DNA from: Alphaproteobacteria bacterium
Lineage (GTDB): Bacteria > Pseudomonadota > Alphaproteobacteria > UBA828
Direction: 5' to 3'
NCBI GenBank assembly: GCA_965237415.1
Contig: CBDEFM010000002.1
Span: forward strand, 2,336,001-2,400,000
Length of the DNA: 64,000 nt
The notes under the pieces were generated by a model. It did not search any database. It worked only from the letters and a program-made list of their open reading frames with translations, and was not told the origin of the DNA. The position numbers and the translations under genes are program-made. Position 1 is the first letter of the stretch, and every line of letters begins with the position of its first letter. Shown here one piece after another: positions 5,039 to 47,075 of this stretch.

Positions 5039-5557
5039 ATGAGCCAAGCCGCCGCCCCCGTCGCCCGCGTCTCCGCACCGAGCGCGCATCCCTTCTCGCC
5101 GCCCGATATCGTGCTCCCGACCGAACCGGAGGACGAACGGATCTGGGTGCCGCTGAAGGAGGGCGTCTGGCTGCGCCCGCTGATGTACAACACGGTGCAG
5201 GGTGGCTGGTGCGAGGTCGTGAAGGTCACGGGCGGGGGCTTCGTCTCGCGCCACCGGCATCCGGCGCCGGTCCACGGCCTCGTGCTCAAGGGCGCCTTCC
5301 GCTACCTCGAGCACGACTGGATCGCTGATCAGGGAACCTACATCTACGAGCCGCCGGGCGAGGTTCATACCCTCGTGGTCGACGACGACTGCCCGGAGAT
5401 GCACTGCTTCTTCGCGATCTCGGGCTCGGTCAACTATGTGGACGAGGAAGGCCGGGACGTCCGCGCGGAGGATGTCTTTCACCGCCTCGACCGCGCGCGG
5501 CAACACTACGAGGAGGTCGGCCTCGGCGCCGACTACGTCAAGAACTTCGTGCGTTAG
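5039..5557 (+). CDS. 2,4'-dihydroxyacetophenone dioxygenase-family cupin
   Basis: SRHRHPAPVHGLVLKGAFRYLEHDW..YEPPGEVHTL cupin motif. Confidence 0.8.
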   Translation: MSQAAAPVARVSAPSAHPFSPPDIVLPTEPEDERIWVPLKEGVWLRPLMYNTVQGGWCEVVKVTGGGFVSRHRHPAPVHGLVLKGAFRYLEHDWIADQGTYIYEPPGEVHTLVVDDDCPEMHCFFAISGSVNYVDEEGRDVRAEDVFHRLDRARQHYEEVGLGADYVKNFVR

Positions 5558-5616
5558 AGCGCGCGCCTTGCGAACGGGATAGGCTTCGCGGGCATCGGAA
5601 TTGGGAGCGATTTGCC

Positions 5617-5829
5617 ATGCAGAAAGGATTCACGGCCGTCGTGAAGCAATCCGGTCCCTGGTGGATCGGCTGGATCGAAGAGATTCCCGGTGTCAATTGC
5701 CAGGAGCGCACGAGAGAGGAGTTGCTGGAAACTCTCCGTGTGACGTTGCGGGAAGCGCTGGAGCAGAATCGCAGCGAGGCCATCGAGGCCGCCGGGCAAG
5801 ACTATGAAGAAGCAACCGTCGTTGTATGA
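5617..5829 (+). CDS. hicB: HicB-like antitoxin (short, UPF0150-type)
   Basis: FTAVVKQSGPWWIGWIEEIPGVNCQERTREELLETLR; ATGA overlap with hicA. Confidence 0.8.
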   Translation: MQKGFTAVVKQSGPWWIGWIEEIPGVNCQERTREELLETLRVTLREALEQNRSEAIEAAGQDYEEATVVV

Positions 5830-6047
5830 AGCGTCGGAAGCTTCTGCGGCATCTGCGCAACCATGGCTGCGCGTTGTTGCGTGAAGGCGGACGGCACTCT
5901 TGGTGGCACAACCCGTCGTCGAACAGGCGTTCGGCCGTTCCGCGACACGTAGAGATCGACGAGTATGTGCGGCCGGCGACGGTCGCCGACGCGCTTGCCG
6001 CCCTCGGCCGCTACGACGAAGGCGATGCGGCTCATTCTGCGTCTTAA
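5826..6047 (+). pseudogene. hicA: HicA toxin N-terminus fused in frame to a fragment of a coxM-like gene
   Basis: MKRRKLLRHL..GCALLREGGRHSWW..SAVPRHVEI followed by IDEYVRPATVADALAAL, which matches the 7274 ORF. Confidence 0.75.
5954..6031 (+). repeat. 78-bp direct repeat of 7288..7365 (coxM-like 5' end)
   Basis: 74/78 identical; all 4 mismatches are at third codon positions. Confidence 0.9.
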
Positions 6048-6099
6048 CGAACACCGTTCTTCGGCCATGTCCTCGAAGCTCTCCGACATTTGAAGTAAC

Positions 6100-7092
6100 G
6101 TGCTCAAGCGCGACGCGGTTGCATACACTGCTCGCAGCTTCGAACGCGTTTACGATAGTGACGAGGCGGGCGACCTGGAGCTGCGGAAGACGGCATACAA
6201 GGATCTCACCAACAATTACTACGAACTGGTGACGGATTTTTATGAGTACGGTTGGGGCAAATCATTTCATTTTGCGCCACGTGCCCCGGACGAAAGTTTC
6301 GCAGACTCCCTTGCCCGCCACGAACGCAACCTCGCACAACGACTTGACCTGCGAACCGGAATGCGGGTGGCGGATCTGGGTTGTGGTGTCGGTGGTCCGT
6401 TGCGTGAGATTGCCCGCTTCTCCGGAGCCACGATCGTCGGCGTGAATAACAATGAATACCAACTCGACAGGGCCCGGAAGCTGACCGAAGAAGCGGGACT
6501 GGGGCACTTGGCGGAGTTTCTCAAGTGCGACTTCATGCACATGGATGCGCCGGACAATTCATTCGACGCCGCCTACGCGATCGGGGCCACCATCCACGCG
6601 CCGAGCAAGGTCGGCTGTTACGGTGAAGTGTTCCGGGTGCTCAAGCCAGGAGGATGCTTCGCGGCCTACGAGTACTGTCTCACCAGCCGCTTCGATCCGA
6701 ACAACCCGCGGCACCGGAAGATAAAGAGCGATCTCGAGGTCAGCGGCGCATTGCCGGACGTCGCCCTTCCACACCAGGTCGACGACGCACTGCGGCAGGT
6801 CGGGTTCGAGTTGCTGGAATCCAGAGACCTGGCCGAGAATCCGGGGCCAGGCATCCCCTGGTACCAGCCCCTCGCCGGTTCGCGAATCTCGTTTGCCGGC
6901 TTTCGCAGTTCGAGAACGGGACGCCTGGCGACCCATGGCACTCTACAGCTTATGGAAGCGCTCGGAATTGTGCCCCAGGGAACCGTGCGCGCGTCCACAC
7001 TCCTGAACATGTGTGCAAAGGCTTACGTGGCATGCGGTCGCCTGGGTATCCTCACGCCGATGTACTTCGTGTACGCGCGCAAGCCGCAGTAG
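6100..7092 (+). CDS. sterol C-24 methyltransferase (ERG6/SMT1-like)
   Basis: FYEYGWGKSFHF, DLGCGVGGP, NNNEYQ, YAIGATIHAP, RVLKPGG, YEY and IPWYQPL motifs. Confidence 0.85.
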   Translation: MLKRDAVAYTARSFERVYDSDEAGDLELRKTAYKDLTNNYYELVTDFYEYGWGKSFHFAPRAPDESFADSLARHERNLAQRLDLRTGMRVADLGCGVGGPLREIARFSGATIVGVNNNEYQLDRARKLTEEAGLGHLAEFLKCDFMHMDAPDNSFDAAYAIGATIHAPSKVGCYGEVFRVLKPGGCFAAYEYCLTSRFDPNNPRHRKIKSDLEVSGALPDVALPHQVDDALRQVGFELLESRDLAENPGPGIPWYQPLAGSRISFAGFRSSRTGRLATHGTLQLMEALGIVPQGTVRASTLLNMCAKAYVACGRLGILTPMYFVYARKPQ

Positions 7093-7273
7093 CGCCGCGA
7101 TCCCGCGCGGGCCACGTCGTCCGGGATAGAGGCCCGCGCACCCGGCTGGCGCCATCTGTGCCGGCTCGCGGCGGCGACCGGTCGGTGCCGGTGGAGCCTT
7201 TCGAATCAACCGTGCAAGGCGGCGGCGCCCGCACCTATAATGGCGCGCCGGTAAGCGACGGGGAGCAGCCAGC

Positions 7274-19716: not shown

Positions 19717-20865
19717 ATGACCGTGGACGGACCGCTCAGCGGCGTCACCGTGATCGACCTGACGCGGGTTCTCGCCGGGCCCTACTGCACCCTGGTGCTC
19801 GCCGATCTCGGCGCCCGCGTGATCAAGGTGGAGACGCCGGGCGGCGGCGACGATTCCCGCACCTTTGGCCCTTTCATCGAGGGGAAGTCCGCCTACTTCA
19901 TGTCGATCAACCGCGGCAAGGAGAGCATCTCCCTCAACCTCAAGGAGGACGGCGACCGCACGGTCTTCGAGGACCTGCTGGCGGGCGCCGACGTGGCGGT
20001 CGAGAACTTCCGCGCCGGCACGATGGAGCGACTCGGCTACGGCTGGGAGGCGCTGCACGCGCGCTTCCCCCGGCTCATCTATGCGGCGTGCTCGGGCTTC
20101 GGCCACACCGGGCCCTACGCCGGTCGGCCGGCCTATGACGTGGTGGTGCAGGCCATGGGCGGCATCATGAGCCTGACCGGCCAGCCCGGCGGGCCGCCGG
20201 CGCGGGTGGGAAGCTCCGTCGGCGATATCGTCGCCGGCCTCTTCACCGCCATCGGCATCAACGGCGCGCTCTACCGGCGGACGACGACGGGCGAAGGCAT
20301 GAAGCTCGACGTCTCCATGCTCGATTGCCAGGTGGCGATCCTGGAGAACGCGCTCGCGCGCTACTTCGCGTCCGGCGAGGTGCCGGGGCCGCTCGGGACA
20401 CGCCATCCCTCGATAGCACCCTTCCAGGCCTACGCGACCGCCGACGGTCACGTCGTCATCTCCGCCGGCAACGACGCGCTCTTCGCGACGCTCTGTGCCG
20501 CGCTGGAGCGGCCGGACCTCGCCGAGGACGCGCGCTTCGCCGACAATGCCGCCCGCAACGCCAATATCGACGCGCTGGAGGCCGAGTTCGAGGCGATCCT
20601 GACGGCGCACCCGACGGCGCACTGGCTCACGGTGCTGGAAGAGGCCGGCGTGCCATGCTCGCCGATCAACAGGGTGGATGACGTGCTCGCCGACCCCCAG
20701 GTGGCGGCGCGCAACATGGTGATCCGGGCGCTGGACCCGGTCGCAGGCGAGGTGAAGATGGCAGGCAACCCAATCAAGCTCTCCGCCTATCCCGACCCGG
20801 CGGAACGGCCGCCCGCGCCGGAGCTCGACCAGCACCGGCGGGCGATCGTCGGCGGAGACGCATGA
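19717..20865 (+). CDS. class III CoA transferase (CaiB/BaiF)
   Basis: DLTRVLAGP, NRGKESI, ENFRAG, SVGDIVAG. Confidence 0.9.
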   Translation: MTVDGPLSGVTVIDLTRVLAGPYCTLVLADLGARVIKVETPGGGDDSRTFGPFIEGKSAYFMSINRGKESISLNLKEDGDRTVFEDLLAGADVAVENFRAGTMERLGYGWEALHARFPRLIYAACSGFGHTGPYAGRPAYDVVVQAMGGIMSLTGQPGGPPARVGSSVGDIVAGLFTAIGINGALYRRTTTGEGMKLDVSMLDCQVAILENALARYFASGEVPGPLGTRHPSIAPFQAYATADGHVVISAGNDALFATLCAALERPDLAEDARFADNAARNANIDALEAEFEAILTAHPTAHWLTVLEEAGVPCSPINRVDDVLADPQVAARNMVIRALDPVAGEVKMAGNPIKLSAYPDPAERPPAPELDQHRRAIVGGDA

Positions 20866-23297
20866 TGCGTGCCGCAGCTTCCGGCAGGGGAGGCTGGCGG
20901 CGGAGCTTCAGCCTCAGGCGACTGCGACCGTACTGCGCGGCGTTCGGCGCCGCGGCGCTGCTTGCGTTGCTGCTCGCCGCAGGCTCCTGCTCGTGGTTCG
21001 CCCTCCCCTCCTACGACGGGGCCGAGGAGGTCCTGGGCCTCGATGCGCCGGTGGAGATCGTCCGCGACGCGCACGCGATCCCCCACATCTACGCCCAGTC
21101 GCCGAGGGACGGCGCGTTTGCCATGGGCTATGTCCACGCGCAGGACCGGCTCTGGCAGCTGGAGATGCAGCGCAGGATCGGCCAGGCGCGGCTTGCGGAG
21201 GTCGTGGGCGAGCCCGCCGTTGGGACCGACAAGTTCCTGCGCACGCTCGGCATCTACCGTGTCGCCGAGCGGAATTTCGAGAGGCTCTCTCCGCAAGCGC
21301 AGGCGATCTACGAGGCCTATGCGGCGGGTGTGAACGCCTATCTGGAGTCCCGCTCCGAGCTGCTGCCGCTCGAGTTCCAGCTGCTCGGCCATGAGCCCGA
21401 GCCCTGGCGGCCCGCCGACAGCCTCGTTTGGCTCAAGATGATGGCCTGGGACCTCGGCGACAATTTTAAGGACGAGCTGCTGCGCGCGCGCCTCGCCGGC
21501 AAGCTCGACCGGGCGCAGCTGCAGGACCTCTGGGCCCAGCATCCCGACGACCCCCCCATGGGGCCGCACGGGCAAGCGCCGGACTTCGACCCCGCCGGCA
21601 TCGACTTCGATGCGCTGGCGGCCGCCCTGCCGCTGCAGCGTGCGTCCGGGCTCGGCTCCAACGCCTGGGCGCTGAGCGGCGAACACACGGAATCCGGCAA
21701 GCCGCTGCTCGCCAACGACCCGCACCTGCGCCTCGAGGTGCCGAGCGTCTGGTACCTCGCCCATATCTCGACGCCGGAGTTCGAGGTCGTGGGCGCGACG
21801 CTGCCGGGGATGCCCTTCCCTTTGCTGGGCCGCACCCGCAACCTCGCCTGGGGCTTCACCAACACCGGGCCCGACGTCCAGGACCTCTTCATCGAGCGCA
21901 TCGACCCCGAAGACCCCGCGCGCTACCTCGCGCCGGAAGGGAGCCTGCCCTTCGAGGTCCGCAGCGAGACCATCGAGGTCAGCGGGGGCGATCCCATCGA
22001 GCTTACGGTGCGCGAGACGCGTCACGGGCCGGTGGTCTCCGACGTGCTGGAGAAGAGCGGGGAGTTCCTGGAGGCCGGCCACGTGCTCGCCTTCTCGTGG
22101 ACCGCTTTGGATGACGACGACGTGAGCGCCCAGGCGCTGGTGCAGGGCGTCACGGCCGCGGACTGGCAGGGCTTCGTTGAGGCGCTTCGCGACTTAAGCG
22201 TGCCGCAGCAGACCATCGTCTTCGCCGACAGCGACGGCACCATCGGCTTCGTGGCGCCGGGCCGGGTGCCGATCCGCGCGTCGGGCCAGGGGCACCTGCC
22301 CGCACCGGGCTGGACCGGCAGCCACGACTGGGTGGACCGCGTGCCCTTCGACGCGCTGCCGGGGGACTACAACCCGCCGTCGGGCCGCATCGTCACCGCC
22401 AACAACCGCGTGGTCGCCCACGACTATCCCTACTATCTGACCGACGACTGGACTCCGCCCTACCGCGCGCAGCGGATCGACGCCCTGCTCGACGCCAAGC
22501 CCAAGCACGATGTGGCGAGTTTTTCCGCGATCCAGCAGGACCAGGTCTCGCTCGCGGCGGCGCGGCTTATGCCGGTGCTCCTCGGGTTGGCGGAGCCCTC
22601 GAACGACACCGGGCGCACGGCGCTCGCCATGCTCGGCGAGTGGGACCACACCATGGGGCGGGACAGCACCGAGGCGCTCATCTACATGGCGTGGCTCAGG
22701 GAGCTGATGCACGTGCTCTTCGCCGACGAGCTGGGCGACGTGTTCGAGGACTACTGGAAGATCCGCACCGAGGTCATCCACCGCGCGCTCACCGAGCGCA
22801 CCCAATGGTGCGACAATGAGACGACCGTGCAGCAGGAGACCTGCGCCGAGGCCGTGAGCCGGGCGCTCAAGGTCTCGCTCGAATACCTCGCCGTCACCTA
22901 CGGCCACGACATGGAGGACTGGCGCTGGGGCGAGGCCCACGCGGTCCACATGAAGAGCCGGATCCTCGGCGAGTTTCCGGCCATCGGCTCCTGGTTCGAG
23001 ATCGACATGCCGACGGGCGGGGAGAAGGAGACGGTGAAGGCCGGTGGGTTCGACGTAGCCGACACGACGCGCCCCTTCGCCCAGAACCACGGCGCCGGCT
23101 ACCGCGCGGTCTACGACTTGGCCGAACCGGAACGCTCGGTCTTCGTCATCAGCACCGGGCAATCCGGCAACCCGCTCTCGTCCTACTACGAGGACTACGC
23201 CGAGCCCTGGCGCGACGGCCGCTACCTCCCCATGCTCACCGAGCGTTCGCGAGCGGAGGAGGACGCGCTGGGGACGCTGGTGTTGACGCCGAGGTGA
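20862..23297 (+). CDS. penicillin acylase family (S45 Ntn-hydrolase), exported
   Basis: HAQDRLWQ, GSNAW nucleophile, LANDPHL, TANN, GQSGNP. Confidence 0.9.
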   Translation: MMRAAASGRGGWRRSFSLRRLRPYCAAFGAAALLALLLAAGSCSWFALPSYDGAEEVLGLDAPVEIVRDAHAIPHIYAQSPRDGAFAMGYVHAQDRLWQLEMQRRIGQARLAEVVGEPAVGTDKFLRTLGIYRVAERNFERLSPQAQAIYEAYAAGVNAYLESRSELLPLEFQLLGHEPEPWRPADSLVWLKMMAWDLGDNFKDELLRARLAGKLDRAQLQDLWAQHPDDPPMGPHGQAPDFDPAGIDFDALAAALPLQRASGLGSNAWALSGEHTESGKPLLANDPHLRLEVPSVWYLAHISTPEFEVVGATLPGMPFPLLGRTRNLAWGFTNTGPDVQDLFIERIDPEDPARYLAPEGSLPFEVRSETIEVSGGDPIELTVRETRHGPVVSDVLEKSGEFLEAGHVLAFSWTALDDDDVSAQALVQGVTAADWQGFVEALRDLSVPQQTIVFADSDGTIGFVAPGRVPIRASGQGHLPAPGWTGSHDWVDRVPFDALPGDYNPPSGRIVTANNRVVAHDYPYYLTDDWTPPYRAQRIDALLDAKPKHDVASFSAIQQDQVSLAAARLMPVLLGLAEPSNDTGRTALAMLGEWDHTMGRDSTEALIYMAWLRELMHVLFADELGDVFEDYWKIRTEVIHRALTERTQWCDNETTVQQETCAEAVSRALKVSLEYLAVTYGHDMEDWRWGEAHAVHMKSRILGEFPAIGSWFEIDMPTGGEKETVKAGGFDVADTTRPFAQNHGAGYRAVYDLAEPERSVFVISTGQSGNPLSSYYEDYAEPWRDGRYLPMLTERSRAEEDALGTLVLTPR

Positions 23298-23685: not shown

Positions 23686-24285
23686 ATGTTTATATTGGAA
23701 AAAGAAAACCCCGAACTGTATGATAGAGTTCAAGAGCAAAACCTTAACCGACAATACGAGCTCCTCACGAATTGCGTCGAAATTGGACTTATGAAGGGCC
23801 CGGTCTCTTTCGACAAGTATCTTCTTTGGGCGCTAAATCATGCAGCAGTAGCAAATATTTCTCAGTTTGGAGGACGATTTCGTAAGGAGCCGATTTATGT
23901 TGGAAATCACAAACCTCCACACTTCAATGATGTTTCGGACTGGATGGACCGATGTATTTCCACCATTCAAGAGAATTGGTACATATGGACTGAAACTCAG
24001 CTGGCAGCATATGGACTTTGGCGATTAAACTGGATACACCCTTTCATAGAGGGCAACGGGAGAACTGCTCGTGCCGCATGCTACTTCCTTTTGTGCGTGA
24101 GGTCGGGCTGTCTGCTGCCGGGAACCAAAATTGTTCCAGAGAGGATAAGGGAGAGCAGGGAATCATATGAGGCAGCACTAACCGCTGCTGATCGAGCTTG
24201 GGATGACGGGCATCTCGATTTTAGGGAAATGGAGGAATATCTCGCTAATTTGCTCCAGGAACAGCTTGAGGAAGCTCTGAGTTAA
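23686..24285 (+). CDS. Fic/DOC family protein
   Basis: Canonical HPFIEGNGRTAR motif; low GC. Confidence 0.9.
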   Translation: MFILEKENPELYDRVQEQNLNRQYELLTNCVEIGLMKGPVSFDKYLLWALNHAAVANISQFGGRFRKEPIYVGNHKPPHFNDVSDWMDRCISTIQENWYIWTETQLAAYGLWRLNWIHPFIEGNGRTARAACYFLLCVRSGCLLPGTKIVPERIRESRESYEAALTAADRAWDDGHLDFREMEEYLANLLQEQLEEALS

Positions 24286-35334: not shown

Positions 35335-36450
35335 TCAACCGGCGGGCTTCCGTGGGGCGTTCTTGCGCCGATCACGATCCGTGGCGAGCCGTAGGAGATC
35401 AAAGGGCAGACGAGCAAGACGCCATGGCCTGTGTGCGGAATTGGCCAATAGAGTTCCTACTTGCCAGCGCATGCTGTTCTGCATATCACGAACCTTGTTC
35501 CTTTCTTCCCGAAGCTGTCGTTCGACCTTTCCAACCCTCTCGTTGGCCGCCTCAATCTCTAGTTCGAGACCTAAGACAGTCTTTCTCGGCTCTCTAACTT
35601 CACTTTCGAGTTTTGCGGTTTGGCTTCGAGTCGAAGTCTCGCTCACGTGTTCACTCTCCACTAGCGAACCGTGAACGACTGTTGCGTTCAAAAAATCGCG
35701 CTCCAGATCGGTCTTTGAATATCGTGACAGCACATCTTCAAAACGATTATAGAAACCCTCATCAAACTGTGAACAAGAGAACCATTCCTTTTGAACTTCG
35801 AATCCGAGAATCTCAAAATAGTGCCTATATCCTGAGTACGTCAACTTATTCACCCACGCAGGTCTGTTCGGTTTTCTACCAGTATTAAGGTAGAATTCTT
35901 CGAAGACATCATCCGTAAACAGGAGATGCGGCCACGGAAAGAACACTTCTCTATATCGATGGGATGCCTGTGGACCTCGATAAAGATTTGCACTTAGAAA
36001 GAAGTGCCCATCATTCCTTAGAAGCCGCTTGACCCCTTGAAGGGCTGCGTAGGGATGCTTGATATGTTCCCAAACAGCGGAAGAATAGATTAGGTCGAAT
36101 TGCCCTATATCCTCGTGATCCTTGGAGCTTACATCCAAAACACGCAGATCGAGGTTCGGAACAGACTTATAGTCAGACCACTCTCGTTCCACAATATCGA
36201 CACCCACTACGTCGCAGGCATAATTTCTGGCAAGCACATATGAGAACGCACCGCGGCCACAACCGATTTCAAGCACGCGCTTGTCACGAACATTCAGCAA
36301 TTTATCTATGTTGGCGGCTCGCCGTTTCGCCGCCTCTTCCAAATCCACCTTTCCAGTACGTCTCGGCCGCGGTACAATCGGTTTATCCTTATATTCTTCG
36401 TTTAACTCAAGAAACAAATCGAGGTTGAAGCTTTTATTTTCCCTAGTCAT
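35335..36450 (-). CDS. class I SAM-dependent methyltransferase with C-terminal coiled coil; low GC
   Basis: VLEIGCGRG, VVGVD, FDLIYSSAVWEH; coiled coil plus SMRWQVG tail typical of glycan-associated proteins. Confidence 0.75.
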   Translation of the reverse strand: MTRENKSFNLDLFLELNEEYKDKPIVPRPRRTGKVDLEEAAKRRAANIDKLLNVRDKRVLEIGCGRGAFSYVLARNYACDVVGVDIVEREWSDYKSVPNLDLRVLDVSSKDHEDIGQFDLIYSSAVWEHIKHPYAALQGVKRLLRNDGHFFLSANLYRGPQASHRYREVFFPWPHLLFTDDVFEEFYLNTGRKPNRPAWVNKLTYSGYRHYFEILGFEVQKEWFSCSQFDEGFYNRFEDVLSRYSKTDLERDFLNATVVHGSLVESEHVSETSTRSQTAKLESEVREPRKTVLGLELEIEAANERVGKVERQLREERNKVRDMQNSMRWQVGTLLANSAHRPWRLARLPFDLLRLATDRDRRKNAPRKPAG

Positions 36451-36740
36451 GCCGCTTTCCATCTATTCTACATTCCGATCGTCAGATGTCTTCTCCAGGC
36501 GTTTGTCAGAACATTGTGACGGTAACAGTTCGCAGATGGTGAAACGCAGGCGAGTCGGAATGAGTGCTCCGACGATCGGACGCACAATCGAGATCCTGTC
36601 TCGCGCCATTGGGTCATCTCGCAGCTACACGCGAGGTTAAGGCACTTCAAGCGTGCCATCTTCGCGATCCCCTCTCTGCCAACATCGATGAGACACCTGC
36701 ACCCCTTGGAATTACTGTGGGGCGGTGGAGATGAGAACCG

Positions 36741-37229
36741 ATGGTCACAGAGAGAGAATCGATGGCATTGAACGAGATGGGCGCTCGGGCTCTGGGGATT
36801 GAGGAGCGGAGCGACGAGACCCCCAGAGCCCGAGCGAGCGGCGCGAGGCCGGCGCCGGACCCCGAGGTGGTAGCCAAGCCGAAGCGGCGCCAGTTCACCG
36901 CCGAGTATCGACTGCGAATCCTAGAGGAGGCCGACCGCTGCACGCAGCCCGGCGAGGTCGGACGGCTGCTTCGCCGGGAAGGGTTGTACACCTCCCACCT
37001 GTCGGCTTGGCGCAAAGCGCGTCGTCAAGGCTCGTTGCGGGGCCTGACCCCGAACAAGCGCGGCGCCAAGCCTGCCGAGCATAACCCGCTCAGCGCGAAG
37101 GTGCGCGAGCTCGAGGCGAAAGTGGCGCGGCTGGAGAAGGAGTTGCACACCGCGCATACCATCCTGGATGTCCAGGGAAAAGTTGCCGGGCTGCTGGGAT
37201 TCAACCTCAGCGACGCGAAGGACTGCTGA
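36741..37229 (+). CDS. IS3-family transposase OrfA
   Basis: KRRQFTAEYRLRILEEAD..LLRREGLYTSHLSAWR HTH; start uncertain. Confidence 0.85.
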   Translation: MVTERESMALNEMGARALGIEERSDETPRARASGARPAPDPEVVAKPKRRQFTAEYRLRILEEADRCTQPGEVGRLLRREGLYTSHLSAWRKARRQGSLRGLTPNKRGAKPAEHNPLSAKVRELEAKVARLEKELHTAHTILDVQGKVAGLLGFNLSDAKDC

Positions 37230-43274: not shown

Positions 43275-43660
43275 GTCATGCGGGATTAAGTGGGATTAAG
43301 TGGGATAAGTGGGATTCGGTGGGACAGGCGGCGGCAGTCCTGGATGACGCTGGCGACGACAACGCGGACTGTCGCGCACGCCCACAGGGTCACGAACGCG
43401 GTAGATGGGGTCGCGCGCGGGCGTGGAAGAATGGGTCGCGCGCGGCATATTGTCCCTCGCTCGCCCGTAGGGTCGCGCGCGCCTTTCCCTGCCTCCACCT
43501 GTCGCGGCCCGTGTTCTCTCGTGTTTCAGGACGCGATCCTGACGCAGAATCCGCGCCCGGTGCACCGCACCACGGTCCGGGTCGCGCGCGCCTGAGAGGC
43601 CACGCGCGGTTCAACAGAGTCGCGCACGCCCGCAGGGTCGTGCGCGCGGTACATATGGTC
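43275..43660 (-). repeat. dispersed non-coding repeat, copy B (inverted relative to A)
   Basis: CGGGATTAAGTGGGATTAAGTGGGATAAGTGGGATTC is the exact reverse complement of the copy A end; further shared blocks. Confidence 0.8.
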
Positions 43661-44053
43661 GCGGGCGCCCGCATTGATGCCCTGGAAGCTGTAGTAGCCG
43701 CCGACCATCATCAGGCCGCGGCCTTCGCCCACATAGTCACGGATGAGCTTGAGCCGGTTCGGCGTGGGCTTGCTGTCGATCCACGTATCGGGATGCAGGA
43801 GAAGAGTGTTGGAGCCGATGTCGCTGAGAATGACGGCGTCGAATTCCCGAAGCCCGGCGAGCGTCGACGGAAAGTGCGTCTGCGCCTCGTGAGCCGGCAT
43901 GTAGGTGAGCGCGAAATCGCTGTCTGCCAGCGCGTCGGCCAGCGCATCCGCGCCGCGATGAAAGGTGACCGTGGGAAACTGATCGAAGCCCTTGATGTGC
44001 GTTGCGGTCGTCACCCACGATTCGCCCGCCAGCAGAATCTTCGATCGCGCCAT
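43660..44053 (-). pseudogene. glutamine amidotransferase-like (DUF1355) gene truncated by repeat copy B
   Basis: KILLAGESW..HIKGFDQF..ILSDIGSNTLLL..GGYYSFQGINAGAR, then reads into the repeat. Confidence 0.8.
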
Positions 44054-44398
44054 TCTGGTCTCCTCAGCCAGTCTCCATCACGCCGCTCAGGCCATCCCCG
44101 CCACCCGCTCCGACCGGCGCCCGCCGGGCGGTCCGGCCCGAATGCTAGTTCATGCCCGGTCCCGTCTCCAGCGAGATGTCGCGCCCGCCCGAATCGCGCA
44201 AGCCCGTAGGGTCTTGCGCGCGACAAGAGGAGTCGGGCGCGCGGGACTAGGACCGGCGCCCGCGGCTGCTTCCTCCACAACCCCGGCTACGACGTCAACG
44301 ACGAGATTCTCCTCATCGGCGCCAGCTACCGGGCGACGCTGGCGGAACGGGAGCTGGCGAAGAGAGCTACGGCAGGCGGCTAACCCCTCACAGCCCAC

Positions 44399-44438
44399 TT
44401 GCATTTCCCGCTTAGTCATATTAGAACATACATAGAAC
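44399..44438 (+). promoter_or_regulatory. sigma70-type promoter with overlapping alpha-type LexA box
   Basis: TTGCAT-N17-TAGAAC; GAAC-atacata-GAAC at 44424-44438. Confidence 0.7.
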
Positions 44439-44472
44439 ACGCAATCAACTTGACTAACGCTACATCTTGTGG

Positions 44473-45864
44473 ATGAGTGGTCTCGTGACCATACATTTAG
44501 CGAAGCGCCAGCAACGCATACGCGATCCCGTCCACGGACTTATAGCATTTTCTGCATCCGACGACTTCGAGCAGCTGATGTGGTCCCTGATCAATGCATG
44601 CGAATTCCAGCGCTTGCGGCGCATTAAGCAGCTCGGCTTTTCGGAACTCGTTTACCCTGGTGCAACTCACACTCGCTTCTCCCACAGTGTGGGCGTTTTT
44701 CACACTTCTCGTCAATTAGTCGATCTTCTCAAGACCACTCTGGGAGACACTTTCTCGCAGGAAAGAGCAAACGTCGCAATGTGCTCCGCCCTTCTTCATG
44801 ACCTTGGTCATGGCCCCTTTAGTCATGCGTTTGAAGGCGTAGAGAAGGCACGGGGTGCGCGGAAGAGGCATGAGAAATGGACGGCCGAAATTATAAGGGG
44901 CGACACGGAAGTTGGACAAATTCTGGCGACGTATGATAAGTCTTTTCAGATCAATGTGGCAAGTCTTCTTGAGCAAGAGTACCCGGTGGACATCTATTCT
45001 TCTATTGTATCAAGCCAGTTTGACGCTGATCGAATCGACTATCTTCAGCGAGATAGAATTATGACTGGAACCGAATATGCCGGACTGGACTGGGATTGGC
45101 TGCTGAATAACTTGGAAGTTGGGGAGTTAACGATTGGCGGTGATGACGCAAAGGACCCGTTTGTTGTTGAGGGATTTATTCTCAGTGCTAAAGGTCTCAA
45201 GGCGGCGGAGGGTTACCTTATCGGTCGGTACCATATGTACACGCAGGTGTACATGCATAAGACTACGCGCGCCGCAGAAAAAATGCTCGAATCCCTACTC
45301 ACACGTACCGCTAAGATAATCAATTCGGGAGATCCCTCCAAAACCGGATTACCTAAGAATCACCCGCTCAGATTATATTTTGAAGAAGATGGAAATTCCA
45401 TCGAGCACTATTTGCGTCTGGATGACGCTACAATTTGGGGTGGCCTTGCGCTAATGGAGCAGGCACGAGATAAGGAAATTGTGGATTTGGCCAACCGCTT
45501 GAGAAACAGAGCACTGTATAAATGCTTAGATGTCGGCGCGCGACACAAAATCGTTGGAGGAGATGCTAGAGGGAAATTTCAAAAAGCACTGTCGGATGCG
45601 AAAAGAAAGGGCAGCTTTAAGGATATGGATGTTCTTGAGGACAGGGCGACTGTTTCAGCTTATAAATTTCGCAGCTACGAGAGTCCTGATGCCTTGACAA
45701 AGATCACAATCAGGTTGCCCGATGGAACGGAGCGTCACGAGGACGTGGCGGAGTTATCACCCGTAATTCAAACCCTAAAGGAGGAAAAAGTATTCCGAGT
45801 ATACGGGCGAAATGGCGAAGTGATGGCGAAGTTAACCGAGCTATGGAAGGGAGCGGCGCAATGA
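44473..45864 (+). CDS. HD-domain phosphohydrolase, SAMHD1/YwfO (COG1078)-like putative dNTPase
   Basis: RDPVHG, FQRLRRIKQLG..YPGATHTRFSHS, LLHDLGHGPFSH, DADRIDYLQRD, VYMHK; low GC; start uncertain (44467/44473/44485). Confidence 0.9.
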   Translation: MSGLVTIHLAKRQQRIRDPVHGLIAFSASDDFEQLMWSLINACEFQRLRRIKQLGFSELVYPGATHTRFSHSVGVFHTSRQLVDLLKTTLGDTFSQERANVAMCSALLHDLGHGPFSHAFEGVEKARGARKRHEKWTAEIIRGDTEVGQILATYDKSFQINVASLLEQEYPVDIYSSIVSSQFDADRIDYLQRDRIMTGTEYAGLDWDWLLNNLEVGELTIGGDDAKDPFVVEGFILSAKGLKAAEGYLIGRYHMYTQVYMHKTTRAAEKMLESLLTRTAKIINSGDPSKTGLPKNHPLRLYFEEDGNSIEHYLRLDDATIWGGLALMEQARDKEIVDLANRLRNRALYKCLDVGARHKIVGGDARGKFQKALSDAKRKGSFKDMDVLEDRATVSAYKFRSYESPDALTKITIRLPDGTERHEDVAELSPVIQTLKEEKVFRVYGRNGEVMAKLTELWKGAAQ

Positions 45865-46358
45865 TGGATCAGTCTGACTACGTCAGCGCCATAGTGCGTT
45901 TGGCAGGCGGGGAAATCGTCGGCAAGACGCGATTGCAGAAAATCGCGTATTTGCTCCAAGCTAAGGGTTCTGGATTTAGGGATGTAGAATTCGACTATCA
46001 CAATTTCGGACCCTATAGCGCGGAGTTAGCCTTTGCAGCCGAAGATGCCGAATCTTTGGGTTTCTTGTCCATGGAAGAACGAACTGGTTATCATAGTGTG
46101 CCATATACGGTATTTAGATCGACGGATTGTGCCGCTAGGCTAGATAACTGTGAAGAGATAAAGGCGTGCAAAGCCGACCTTGAAGTGATGAGCGGCTATT
46201 CTGCACTGGTGCTTGAACTGGCCGCAACAGCAATTTATCTGAAGCGGAATGGCTACGCGGAAGACTTCTGGGAGGAAGTGCGGAAACGCAAGTCACTCAA
46301 AGCCACGCAGCCAAGAGTGAGGCAAGCAAAGAAGTTGCTGCAACAGCTAGATCTTTAA
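45861..46358 (+). CDS. YwgA-like protein (winged-helix/Panacea-like fold suspected)
   Basis: GEIVGKTRLQKIAYL..FDYHNFGPYSAEL..LELAAT; ATGA overlap with the HD gene. Confidence 0.75.
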   Translation: MMDQSDYVSAIVRLAGGEIVGKTRLQKIAYLLQAKGSGFRDVEFDYHNFGPYSAELAFAAEDAESLGFLSMEERTGYHSVPYTVFRSTDCAARLDNCEEIKACKADLEVMSGYSALVLELAATAIYLKRNGYAEDFWEEVRKRKSLKATQPRVRQAKKLLQQLDL

Positions 46359-46452
46359 CCTCGGAGTTCATGAGGAAGTGTCATGTCTTGCTCGGCGTGG
46401 GTCCTTAGGGACACAAGAATTGTCTTGGCATGACGTAAGAACGCCCTAAGCC

Positions 46453-46736
46453 TCACCTCGGCCTCAACACCAGCGTCCCCAGCACATCCTCCTCCACTCT
46501 GGCGCGGTCGGTGAGCATGGGGAGGTAGCGGCCGTCGCGCCAGGGCTCGGCGTAGTCCTCGTAGTGCGACGAGAGCGGGTTGCCGGATTGCCCGGTGCTG
46601 ATGACGAAGACCGAGCGCTCGGGCCAGCCCAAGTCGTAGATGGCGCGGTAGCCGGCGCCGTGGTTCTGGGCCAAGGGGCGCTCCTCGTCGGCCACGTCGA
46701 ACCCACCGGCCTTCACCGTCTCCTTCTCGCCGCCCG
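46453..46736 (-). pseudogene. diverged 284-bp 3' fragment of penicillin acylase (inverted copy of 23014..23297)
   Basis: GGEKETVKAGGFDVAD..GQSGNPLSS..GTLVLRPR* aligns without gaps to the pac C-terminus. Confidence 0.9.
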
Positions 46737-46786
46737 ATGGCTGGAGGGTGATCGCGACGCGCTCGCTCACGGAGCAACGCCGCCGC

Positions 46787-47075
46787 TCATTCAATCCCCA
46801 TGACCAGTCTCGGCAGCGTCAGCGAGAGGTCCGGGATGAAGGTGACGATCAGCACCATGGGCAGATGGCCCAAGCACAATAGCTTCATCGTCGGAACGAT
46901 ATACTTGTCCAGCGAGAGCTTGCTGATCCCCGCCGCCATGTAGAGCATCGGCGCGCAGGGGGGCGAGACGTTCCCGAGACCGAGATTGGTGCCGACGATC
47001 GCGGCGAAGTGGATGGGATGGACACCGATCTCCGTCGCCACCGGCAGCAGCACGATCGCCGCGAGCACGCTGCCG
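46787..47075 (-). pseudogene. 3' fragment of TRAP transporter large permease (DctM)
   Basis: LLPVATEIGVHPIHFAAIV..GNVSPP..TFIPDLSLTLP; no 5' part. Confidence 0.8.

Follow-up and report, generated by a model that had tools for sequence, protein, structure and literature searches.

What does a two-gene cassette of unusually low guanine-plus-cytosine (GC) content do in a GC-rich alphaproteobacterium, and when is it expressed? The question is raised by a stretch of 64,000 nucleotides (hereafter the window) from the Alphaproteobacteria bacterium assembly GCA_965237415.1 (lineage UBA828; contig CBDEFM010000002.1, C2:2336001-2400000), whose host genome comprises 4.75 Mb with 66.7% GC. The cassette consists of a gene for an HD phosphohydrolase followed by a gene for a small, YwgA-type partner protein. 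A first-pass annotation, made from the letters alone, had seen in it a mobile, LexA-controlled system that depletes deoxynucleoside triphosphates (dNTPs) in abortive infection or as a toxin–antitoxin pair. With a probability of about one half, we read the cassette as a mobile LexA-repressed operon encoding a dNTPase of the SAMHD1/EF1143 type together with a regulating binder that resembles the C-terminal domain of DarG.

The cassette stands out by composition, with a GC content of 0.47-0.52 over positions 44500-46500 against 0.63-0.73 in the flanks and about 0.67 overall. A contig of 2203 nucleotides that corresponds exactly to the low-GC island (Table 1) was present in two DNA runs from different studies, at a depth below that of the flanking contigs. 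Besides the TTG start, ATG 44473 and GTG 44485 are possible starts of the HD gene, whose open reading frame (ORF) contains the motifs HTRFSH, LLHDLGHGPFSH and FDADRIDYLQRD. The start codon of the partner gene and the stop codon of the HD gene share an ATGA overlap, and the partner carries the motifs GEIVGKTRLQK, FGPYS and LELAAT. The low-GC cassette, the intact HD gene, the translational coupling and the motifs quoted in the first-pass annotation were all found in place.

Table 1. Positions in the window of the cassette genes, the putative control region, the island and the flanking gene remnants.
Feature	Position	Strand	Remarks
LexA box GAACATACATAGAAC, GAAC-N7-GAAC, alphaproteobacterial type	44424..44438	+	perfect match, 29 nucleotides before TTG
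-35-like element TTGCAT	44399..44404	+	CTTG columns invariant in five upstream regions; putative promoter element
-10-like element TAGAAC, 17 nucleotides past the -35-like element	44422..44427	+	TAGAACA invariant; overlaps first GAAC; putative
HD phosphohydrolase gene, SAMHD1/EF1143 (YwfO) type	44467..45864	+	465 amino acids from TTG
YwgA-family partner gene	45861..46358	+	165 amino acids
Low-GC island, entire cassette inside	44278..46480		from GC content and read-contig boundaries
Left flank, putative GATase1-like gene remnant	43526..44053	-	175 amino acids; assigned from relative L005 and DNA match
Right flank, penicillin amidase C-terminal remnant	46453..46794	-	113 codons

In the HD protein, Pfam recognizes an HD domain (PF01966, E value 1.6e-11) and HD_assoc_2 (6.1e-14). 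The best solved homologues are 2o6i, 3irh and 4lrl (E 3.9e-50, residues 16-348), which we take to be the dNTP triphosphohydrolase EF1143 of Enterococcus faecalis; these are followed among the PDB matches by a pair of uncharacterised HD proteins from bacteria, with SAMHD1 chains (E values of 1e-16 to 1e-19) ranking after them. In an alignment of 51 homologues (numbering from ATG 44473), residues H66, R68, H71, H109, D110, H113, H118, H133 and E134 are invariant, as are D186, R187, D189, Y190, R193, D194, Y260 and H262, and the HD metal ligands with the adjacent catalytic residues are among these positions. The homology to solved EF1143-type proteins and to SAMHD1 chains bears out the initial description as a SAMHD1-like hydrolase, and the enzyme is most likely a dNTP triphosphohydrolase. 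Membership in the anti-phage dGTPase family was rejected on the basis of an NCBIfam NF041026 score of 18.2 bits against a cut-off of 400 bits; the PADLOC dGTPase model gave 29.7 bits and covered positions 47-119 of 395 (73 positions) only. PADLOC assigns no system name to the pair of HD protein and partner.

The partner matches no Pfam family. It was modelled by AlphaFold2 with a mean predicted local distance difference test (pLDDT) value of 95, and the top Foldseek match in the PDB is 7yk3_B (E 5.4e-4, probability 1.00, template-modelling scores 0.63/0.57), which is the C-terminal domain of DarG in the Mycobacterium tuberculosis DarTG complex. All remaining matches have E values of at least 0.1 and are weak hits to PadR-type winged helices, to which the N-terminal half of the partner bears some likeness. 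At the sequence level, the partner matches the PADLOC DarG model at positions 172-324 of 329 (E 1.2e-9) and NCBIfam antitoxin_DarG at positions 184-311 of 338 (E 1.6e-6, with a score far under the cut-off). A search of the PDB sequences with the partner profile retrieved the DarG chain at E 0.0021 via the motif QK..Y....F...YGP[YF]S, of which the GP[YF]S portion (G50-P51-x-S53) is invariant across the partner family alignment. The modelled partner folds like the C-terminal domain by which DarG binds its toxin.

DUF4065/Panacea antitoxins are described in a 2026 paper as homologous to that domain of DarG (PMC13621843), and a GPV motif critical for neutralisation is described as the Panacea signature (PMC8832971). 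The likeness to Panacea/SocA-type antitoxins that the first-pass annotation had noticed holds as far as the DarG-type fold and the GP[YF]S motif are concerned; it does not extend to family membership, as PF13274 (DUF4065) matches none of 51 partner-family members at E <= 1. Judged by these comparisons the partner is a distant relative of Panacea at most, not a member. Its own family is large. A word-indexed search returned 94 relatives, several of them named 'uncharacterized protein YwgA' by JGI, and a profile search of 1.84 billion cluster representatives gave 4985 partner-type matches at E <= 0.001, 1565 at 1e-10 and 166 at 1e-30. Nearly all of the best 150 of the 4985 are stand-alone proteins of about 165-180 amino acids.

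The two genes occur together. A scan with one genome per species yielded 98 confirmed partner relatives, of which the best 80 loci were analysed (labelled L below), and an HD homologue lies directly upstream of the partner gene in 78 of these 80. The two others are L031, which is truncated by a contig end, and L045, which is devoid of an HD gene. In 51 full-length pairs the distance from the HD stop to the partner start ranges from -23 to +14 nucleotides, overlaps of 4 or 14 nucleotides being commonest. In Priestia megaterium, too, an HD gene is followed by a gene whose product is 30.7% identical to the partner (94% coverage, E 2e-7), which substantiates the parallel drawn in the first-pass annotation to ywfO-ywgA of Bacillus subtilis. 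The gene order there is pta, rsfA, HD gene, partner homologue, YwhD-family gene, speE and speB, a region which we take to be the Bacillus 'yw' region.

Direct binding of the two proteins is predicted. The complex of HD protein and partner reached ipSAE values of 0.68, 0.67 and 0.67, as opposed to 0.00 for the best of three controls, and this agrees with the earlier idea of an enzyme controlled by its small neighbour. Among complexes with solved structures 116 of 157 attain the ipSAE mark, and among mismatched pairs 2 of 215; the counts are rough for the present case because our own alignments were used. Contacts agreed to at least 87% between runs and the partner had pLDDT values of at least 82. 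On the partner the predicted interface comprises residues 20-24, 43-50, 54-67, 74-83, 114-117 and 142-152, which include the conserved residues G21, R24, Y46, G50, Y82, R143, K144 and K147. On the enzyme it comprises residues 125-132, 164-172, 219-232 and, above all, the C-terminal segment 358-439. Hence the models place the partner mainly on the C-terminal domain of the HD enzyme.

A few loci depart from the intact pair. The locus without an HD gene (L045:6001-6501, from an Azospirillaceae metagenome-assembled genome) is the only one of its kind, and the GC content of its partner gene is close to that of the host. Since the ORFs upstream of it are without a Pfam match, we do not regard it as evidence of partner swapping. 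In six other loci the HD gene is broken and the partner gene intact: it is frameshifted in L004, interrupted in L018, L020 and L034, and carries one stop each in L025 and L063. Because many of these are long-read metagenome assemblies, and because the HD gene is three times longer than the partner gene, no conclusion about toxicity is drawn from them.

Expression of the cassette is likely to be under LexA control. GTTCN7GTTC/GAACN7GAAC is the alphaproteobacterial LexA operator (PMC3091678, PMC9578287), and the perfect GAAC-N7-GAAC box claimed upstream of the HD gene is indeed present (Table 1). It is the only perfect box in the window, where about 1.55 would be expected. In the host genome, lexA (C2:1748264-1748965) has a perfect box, GAACCAAACTAGAAC, located 13 nucleotides before the longest frame and 46 nucleotides before the family match; recA has a box with one mismatch, GAACAAATAGGGTAC, and ssb a perfect box 243 nucleotides upstream. 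When the five closest upstream regions (gene identities of 56-99%) were aligned as a footprint, the box, the -35-like element and TAGAAC proved conserved, while the remaining sequence has diverged. This supports the proposed overlap of the box with the -10 element, even though a scan with the sigma-70 consensus did not call that element and found no promoter on the + strand upstream of the HD gene.

Conservation of the box extends to more distant relatives. A perfect box is located between -300 and +60 relative to the HD start in 29 of 72 evaluable related cassettes. The HD-start regions contain 30 boxes in 25.6 kb (1.17 per kb) compared with 28 in 766 kb elsewhere in the loci (0.037 per kb), a 32-fold local enrichment, with 2 versus 21 for the reversed control. 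These boxes occur in both orientations and have AT-rich spacers. None is found in 10 cassettes from records labelled non-alphaproteobacterial or unclassified (Desulfovibrio, Desulfobacteraceae, Bacteroidota, Flavobacteriaceae, Rhodothermales, Lambdaproteobacteria, Mycobacteriaceae or unclassified), as opposed to 29 of the 62 others. In a quick tree of the HD proteins, boxed cassettes are spread over most clades (27 of 51 rows). Four box-less cassettes lie directly behind a co-oriented excision repair gene that has a box itself, namely uvrB in L014 and L042 and uvrA in L018 and L078. It is the position and the conservation of the box that give it significance, not its mere presence. Being kept across diverged cassettes and confined to alphaproteobacterial ones, it lends support to the LexA control postulated at the outset.

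Further boxes were noticed elsewhere. In Inquilinus limosus DSM 16000 (L036:5930-5944) a perfect GAACATAATGAGAAC box lies within the end of the HD gene, 21 nucleotides before the partner start, and there is no box upstream of that HD gene; the internal box may be a chance match or mark a separate damage-inducible promoter of the partner. In the host genome (G000), three identical GAACATATTGAGAAC boxes at C2:3111353, 3112152 and 3766722 are located beside transposase-like ORFs, one of them with a zinc-ribbon N-terminus, so that GAACATATTGAGAAC is a LexA-box-like motif borne by a repeated element. Perfect boxes with AT-rich spacers also lie just upstream of a gene for a DUF5131 protein (C2:1660869-1661636, - strand; E 3.6e-97) and of one for a 237-amino-acid protein without a Pfam match (C2:2962735-2963448, + strand). 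Both genes are candidate members of the LexA regulon of this genome.

Composition and distribution indicate that the cassette is horizontally mobile, as had been claimed. Its GC content is more than 0.05 below that of the flanks in 61 of 69 loci, with a median difference of -0.109. An even sampling of the class, with 401 genomes from 308 genera, turned up the partner in 17 genomes belonging to 14 genera. Within the genus, a DNA-level search of 18 further genomes found the cassette in two (identities of 97% and 75%), the rest matching scattered pieces of the flanks only; more diverged copies would escape this search. Rows from Rhodothermales and Desulfovibrio are nested in alphaproteobacterial clades of the HD tree, and near-identical proteins occur across six families of Hyphomicrobiales-type organisms. 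No partner match was obtained in the phage records searched, and the one match in the plasmid records is the Bacillus-type region of Priestia. The 64-kb window contains no tRNA genes, and there are no convincing direct or inverted repeats around the island. Among the carriers available in culture and not pathogenic are Labrys okinawensis and several with a boxed cassette, for example Bradyrhizobium sp. ORS 111, Methylocystis rosea SV97, Caulobacter sp. 1776 and Brevundimonas sp. SH203.

Parts of both genes are represented among metatranscriptome contigs from two libraries of one study. One contig per library bridges the gene junction (45692-45912 and 45692-46299), with DNA carry-over being possible. 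In these libraries no contig covers 44204-44448 and one begins at 44449; as the data are contigs from a single study, we do not read this as marking where transcription starts.

How might such an operon work? Our proposal builds on the two genes, the catalytic residues, the conserved box, the mobility and the partner fold, to which model prediction adds the binding; the dNTPase activity, the direction in which the partner regulates and the physiological output are what we infer. In an undamaged cell, LexA sitting on the box that overlaps the -10 element would keep expression low. DNA damage would lead to LexA cleavage and thereby to increased expression of the operon. The partner, bound to the C-terminal domain of the enzyme, would gate its activity or assembly, and the enzyme–partner complex would lower dNTP pools. 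Lower pools would in turn slow replication during excision repair and would also starve SOS-induced prophages or infecting phages. A role of the complex in defence is possible.

Several points weigh against this proposal. A pool-lowering enzyme would be induced at the very time when repair synthesis needs dNTPs, and its benefit is not obvious. The catalytic residues lie outside the predicted interface. The bare motif is not above chance in the genome, with 68 matches compared with 75 for the reversed control, and 39 of the 72 related cassettes are without a perfect box, of which an upstream uvrA or uvrB gene explains four only. The 97%-identical copy L004 combines a one-mismatch box with a frameshifted HD gene. 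No GAAC-N4-GTTC box precedes the Priestia HD gene (one record), and SOS control is thus not a property of the whole family. Finally, the host genome harbours a distant second cassette on the minus strand (L003:5253-7280, corresponding to G000:C2:3885253-3887280), which comprises an HD gene (5797-7131) and a YwgA-like partner gene (5253-5810) with a 14-nucleotide overlap and a GC content of 0.46-0.52, and which is 31% identical to the first. It has a GAACAATGAGAGAAC box 135 nucleotides upstream, with TTGCAA just before the box, and the three relatives that the class sample contains are box-less. For this reason it is not counted as independent support for LexA control, and its box may be a chance match.

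The neighbourhoods of the cassette bear on what it is for. On either side of each of the 80 loci, the closest two or three ORFs were compared with Pfam (138 + 100 + 81 ORFs); the counts are without a random-gene baseline and some loci come from related genomes, for instance L014 and L042 from one genus. uvrA adjoins the cassette in L011, L018, L061 and L078, and uvrB in L014, L022, L041 and L042. SMC genes adjoin it in L047 and L074, dCTP deaminase genes in L036 and L037, thyX and a nucleoside transporter gene in L068, a thymidine kinase gene in L077, and a gene for an SOS-response-associated peptidase in L082. Restriction-modification genes are nearby in seven loci (L024, L025, L029, L041, L054, L056 and L079), and in L024 (290-8092) the cassette sits within a type I restriction-modification operon, with hsdM on one side and hsdS on the other. 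Eight loci have transposase or integrase genes nearby (L004, L007, L018, L020, L029, L039, L059 and L071), and the remaining neighbours are mostly ordinary metabolic genes. The strongest signal, uvrA/uvrB in 8 of 80 loci, is about equal to that of restriction-modification (7 of 80), and a role in DNA damage therefore fits at least as well as one in defence.

HD relatives also occur on their own. An HD match at E <= 1e-20 is present in 32 of the 401 class genomes, one of them marked as unpublished and not relied on for any conclusion. Among the 20 genomes with an HD match at E <= 1e-84, 12 have an adjoining partner-type gene and 8 have none, in the sense of no match by the partner profile (A1) at E <= 1e-5. 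Six of the eight were inspected: their HD proteins are full-length and 30-43% identical to that of the cassette, neither a partner nearby (hidden Markov model search, E <= 10) nor a box was found, and two of the genes adjoin truA-like genes in small genomes. Such solo relatives suggest that the enzyme is not inherently lethal. Its being tolerated without a partner in some lineages weakens a strict toxin–antitoxin interpretation and favours a regulatory role of the partner.

It is against this background that other explanations have to be judged. A dedicated anti-phage module of the abortive-infection or type II toxin–antitoxin kind, with the HD enzyme as toxin, the partner as antitoxin and infection or damage freeing the enzyme, was what the first-pass annotation had favoured; we consider it unlikely. 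In fold and motif the partner resembles the domain by which DarG binds DarT, and the order of enzyme first and binder second is likewise that of darT-darG. The restriction-modification genes within two or three ORFs, the insertion between hsdM and hsdS, and the nearby transposases and integrases fit a defence context as well. Such an explanation would also draw on the homology of Panacea antitoxins to the DarG domain (PMC13621843), on the invariant GP[YF]S motif, which recalls their GPV (PMC8832971), and on HigBA of Caulobacter as an SOS-regulated toxin–antitoxin pair (PMC9578287). What speaks against it are the eight genomes with a partner-less HD gene, the Priestia pair among housekeeping genes, the occurrence of the partner in no phage record and in one plasmid record only, the 18 bits of the HD protein relative to the 400-bit dGTPase cut-off, the lack of a PADLOC system name, and the adjacency to uvrA and uvrB, which would be unexpected for a defence gene. 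Abortive infection or toxin–antitoxin function is not supported.

The same uvr neighbours could be taken to mean that the cassette is a DNA-damage accessory without any immune role. The complex would work alongside excision repair or at stalled forks; it would trim or clean up dNTP pools or else have a part on DNA that needs no catalysis, of the kind reported for SAMHD1 in human cells. Nucleotide metabolism and repair genes next to the cassette (uvrA/uvrB, SMC, dCTP deaminase, thyX, thymidine kinase, SOS-response-associated peptidase), LexA control as a feature common to cassette and repair genes, and the winged-helix-like N-terminal half of the partner all accord with this. Yet low GC, patchiness and transfer across phyla are marks of an accessory gene rather than of core repair, related genomes such as L014 and L042 contribute to the neighbourhood counts, and adjacency to uvr genes may reflect capture of a LexA-controlled promoter instead of shared function. 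We regard a purely damage-related role as doubtful. It is very improbable that the operon is constitutive and its box either arose by chance or serves some other regulator. The genome-wide motif counts, an AT-rich upstream region and the many relatives without a perfect box would be compatible with chance; the 32-fold local enrichment with a flat reversed control, the invariance of the box amid diverging flanks, its confinement to alphaproteobacterial records and the presence of the motif at lexA itself speak against it. The LexA-repressed operon of a dNTPase and its regulating binder is what we prefer.

The pieces of DNA next to the cassette were also inspected. In the relative L005 the counterpart of the left-flank remnant is a complete PF07090 gene (258 amino acids), and a DNA match to the L005 genome spans the remnant. 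A 97%-identical copy of the right-flank amidase remnant (L004:6596-6910) matches Penicil_amidase at positions 595-674 of 675, and a full-length amidase gene is located 23 kb away in the window (20862-23297, + strand), its end being 91% identical at the DNA level to the remnant beside the cassette. Both flanking genes, the GATase1-like and the amidase gene, are complete in L005, and the flanking pieces sit at separate places of the genome in relatives. Directly after the full-length amidase gene, a low-GC islet (0.56) contains an ORF for 199 amino acids (23686-24285, + strand) with HPFIEGNGRTARA, presumably a Fic/Doc-type motif. Farther along the window, an ORF for 375 amino acids (35335-36462, - strand; GC 0.55) carries a VLEIGCGRG motif like that of S-adenosylmethionine-dependent methyltransferases and adjoins a small ORF resembling insertion-sequence orfA (36741-37229, + strand). 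The patch 35335-37229 may be another imported segment.

One may go a step further. In a doubtful scenario, SOS would directly command nucleotide depletion in many alphaproteobacteria, with a mobile SAMHD1 homologue released from LexA repression and a binder of the DarG/Panacea type as the sensor that sets the moment of its action, amounting to a 'nucleotide curfew' that damage triggers and that is imposed on SOS-induced prophages and infecting phages. Humans and bacteria are both known to fight viruses by depleting dNTPs, and no bacterial stress circuit has been studied better than the SOS response. In the papers searched, neither a link between the SOS response and dNTP depletion nor this pairing under SOS control was found. 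If the scenario were true, the cassette would amount to a new immune or stress module of two proteins, one that parallels in bacteria what SAMHD1 does against viruses and in DNA repair. The preferred reading, should it hold, would offer a testable function for the uncharacterised YwfO-YwgA-type pair, whose partner family comprises about 5000 clusters at 50% identity, extend the DarG/Panacea binder fold to a nucleotide hydrolase, and add a mobile effector to the alphaproteobacterial LexA regulon.

The cassette can be compared with several known systems. EF1143 and human SAMHD1 are dNTP triphosphohydrolases, with which the cassette enzyme shares the HD metal-binding and catalytic residues and homology over residues 16-348. 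Compared with EF1143, the last approximately 115 residues of the cassette enzyme are unaligned, and these form most of the predicted partner interface. To our knowledge neither coupling to a YwgA-type gene nor a LexA box is a feature of EF1143 or SAMHD1. One of the papers that mention ywfO offers a pyrophosphohydrolase role as a guess only. As judged by way of the Priestia region, the uncharacterised pair ywfO-ywgA consists of the same two families in the same order. The Bacillus-type pair differs by its housekeeping neighbours, a 23-nucleotide gap between the genes and the lack of a GAAC-N4-GTTC box, whereas the cassette described here has a low-GC island and an alphaproteobacterial box.

Anti-phage dGTPases belong to another HD family than the cassette enzyme and consist of a single gene with no known partner. 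They resemble the cassette in that an HD enzyme is predicted to deplete dNTPs, in their case as a nucleotide-depletion defence (bioRxiv 10.1101/2021.04.26.441389). Panacea (DUF4065, including SocA) is a small domain of helices that carries a conserved GP motif and is found beside varied enzymes, traits in which the partner resembles it; the main text of PMC8832971 makes no mention of 'HD domain', 'phosphohydrolase' or 'dNTP'. In DarTG (PDB 7YK3), the C-terminal domain of DarG binds and inhibits DarT (PMC13621843). The cassette partner has, by prediction, the fold of that domain and its QK...YGP[YF]S motif, and the binder gene likewise follows the enzyme gene; unlike DarTG, the cassette has neither a macrodomain nor DarT, and the upstream enzyme is an HD hydrolase. 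SOS-regulated toxin–antitoxin pairs, finally, are exemplified by HigBA of Caulobacter and yafNO of E. coli (PMC9578287). The cassette likewise is a two-gene module under a probable LexA operator, made up of proteins unrelated to those pairs and with a putative nucleotide hydrolase in the place of the toxin.

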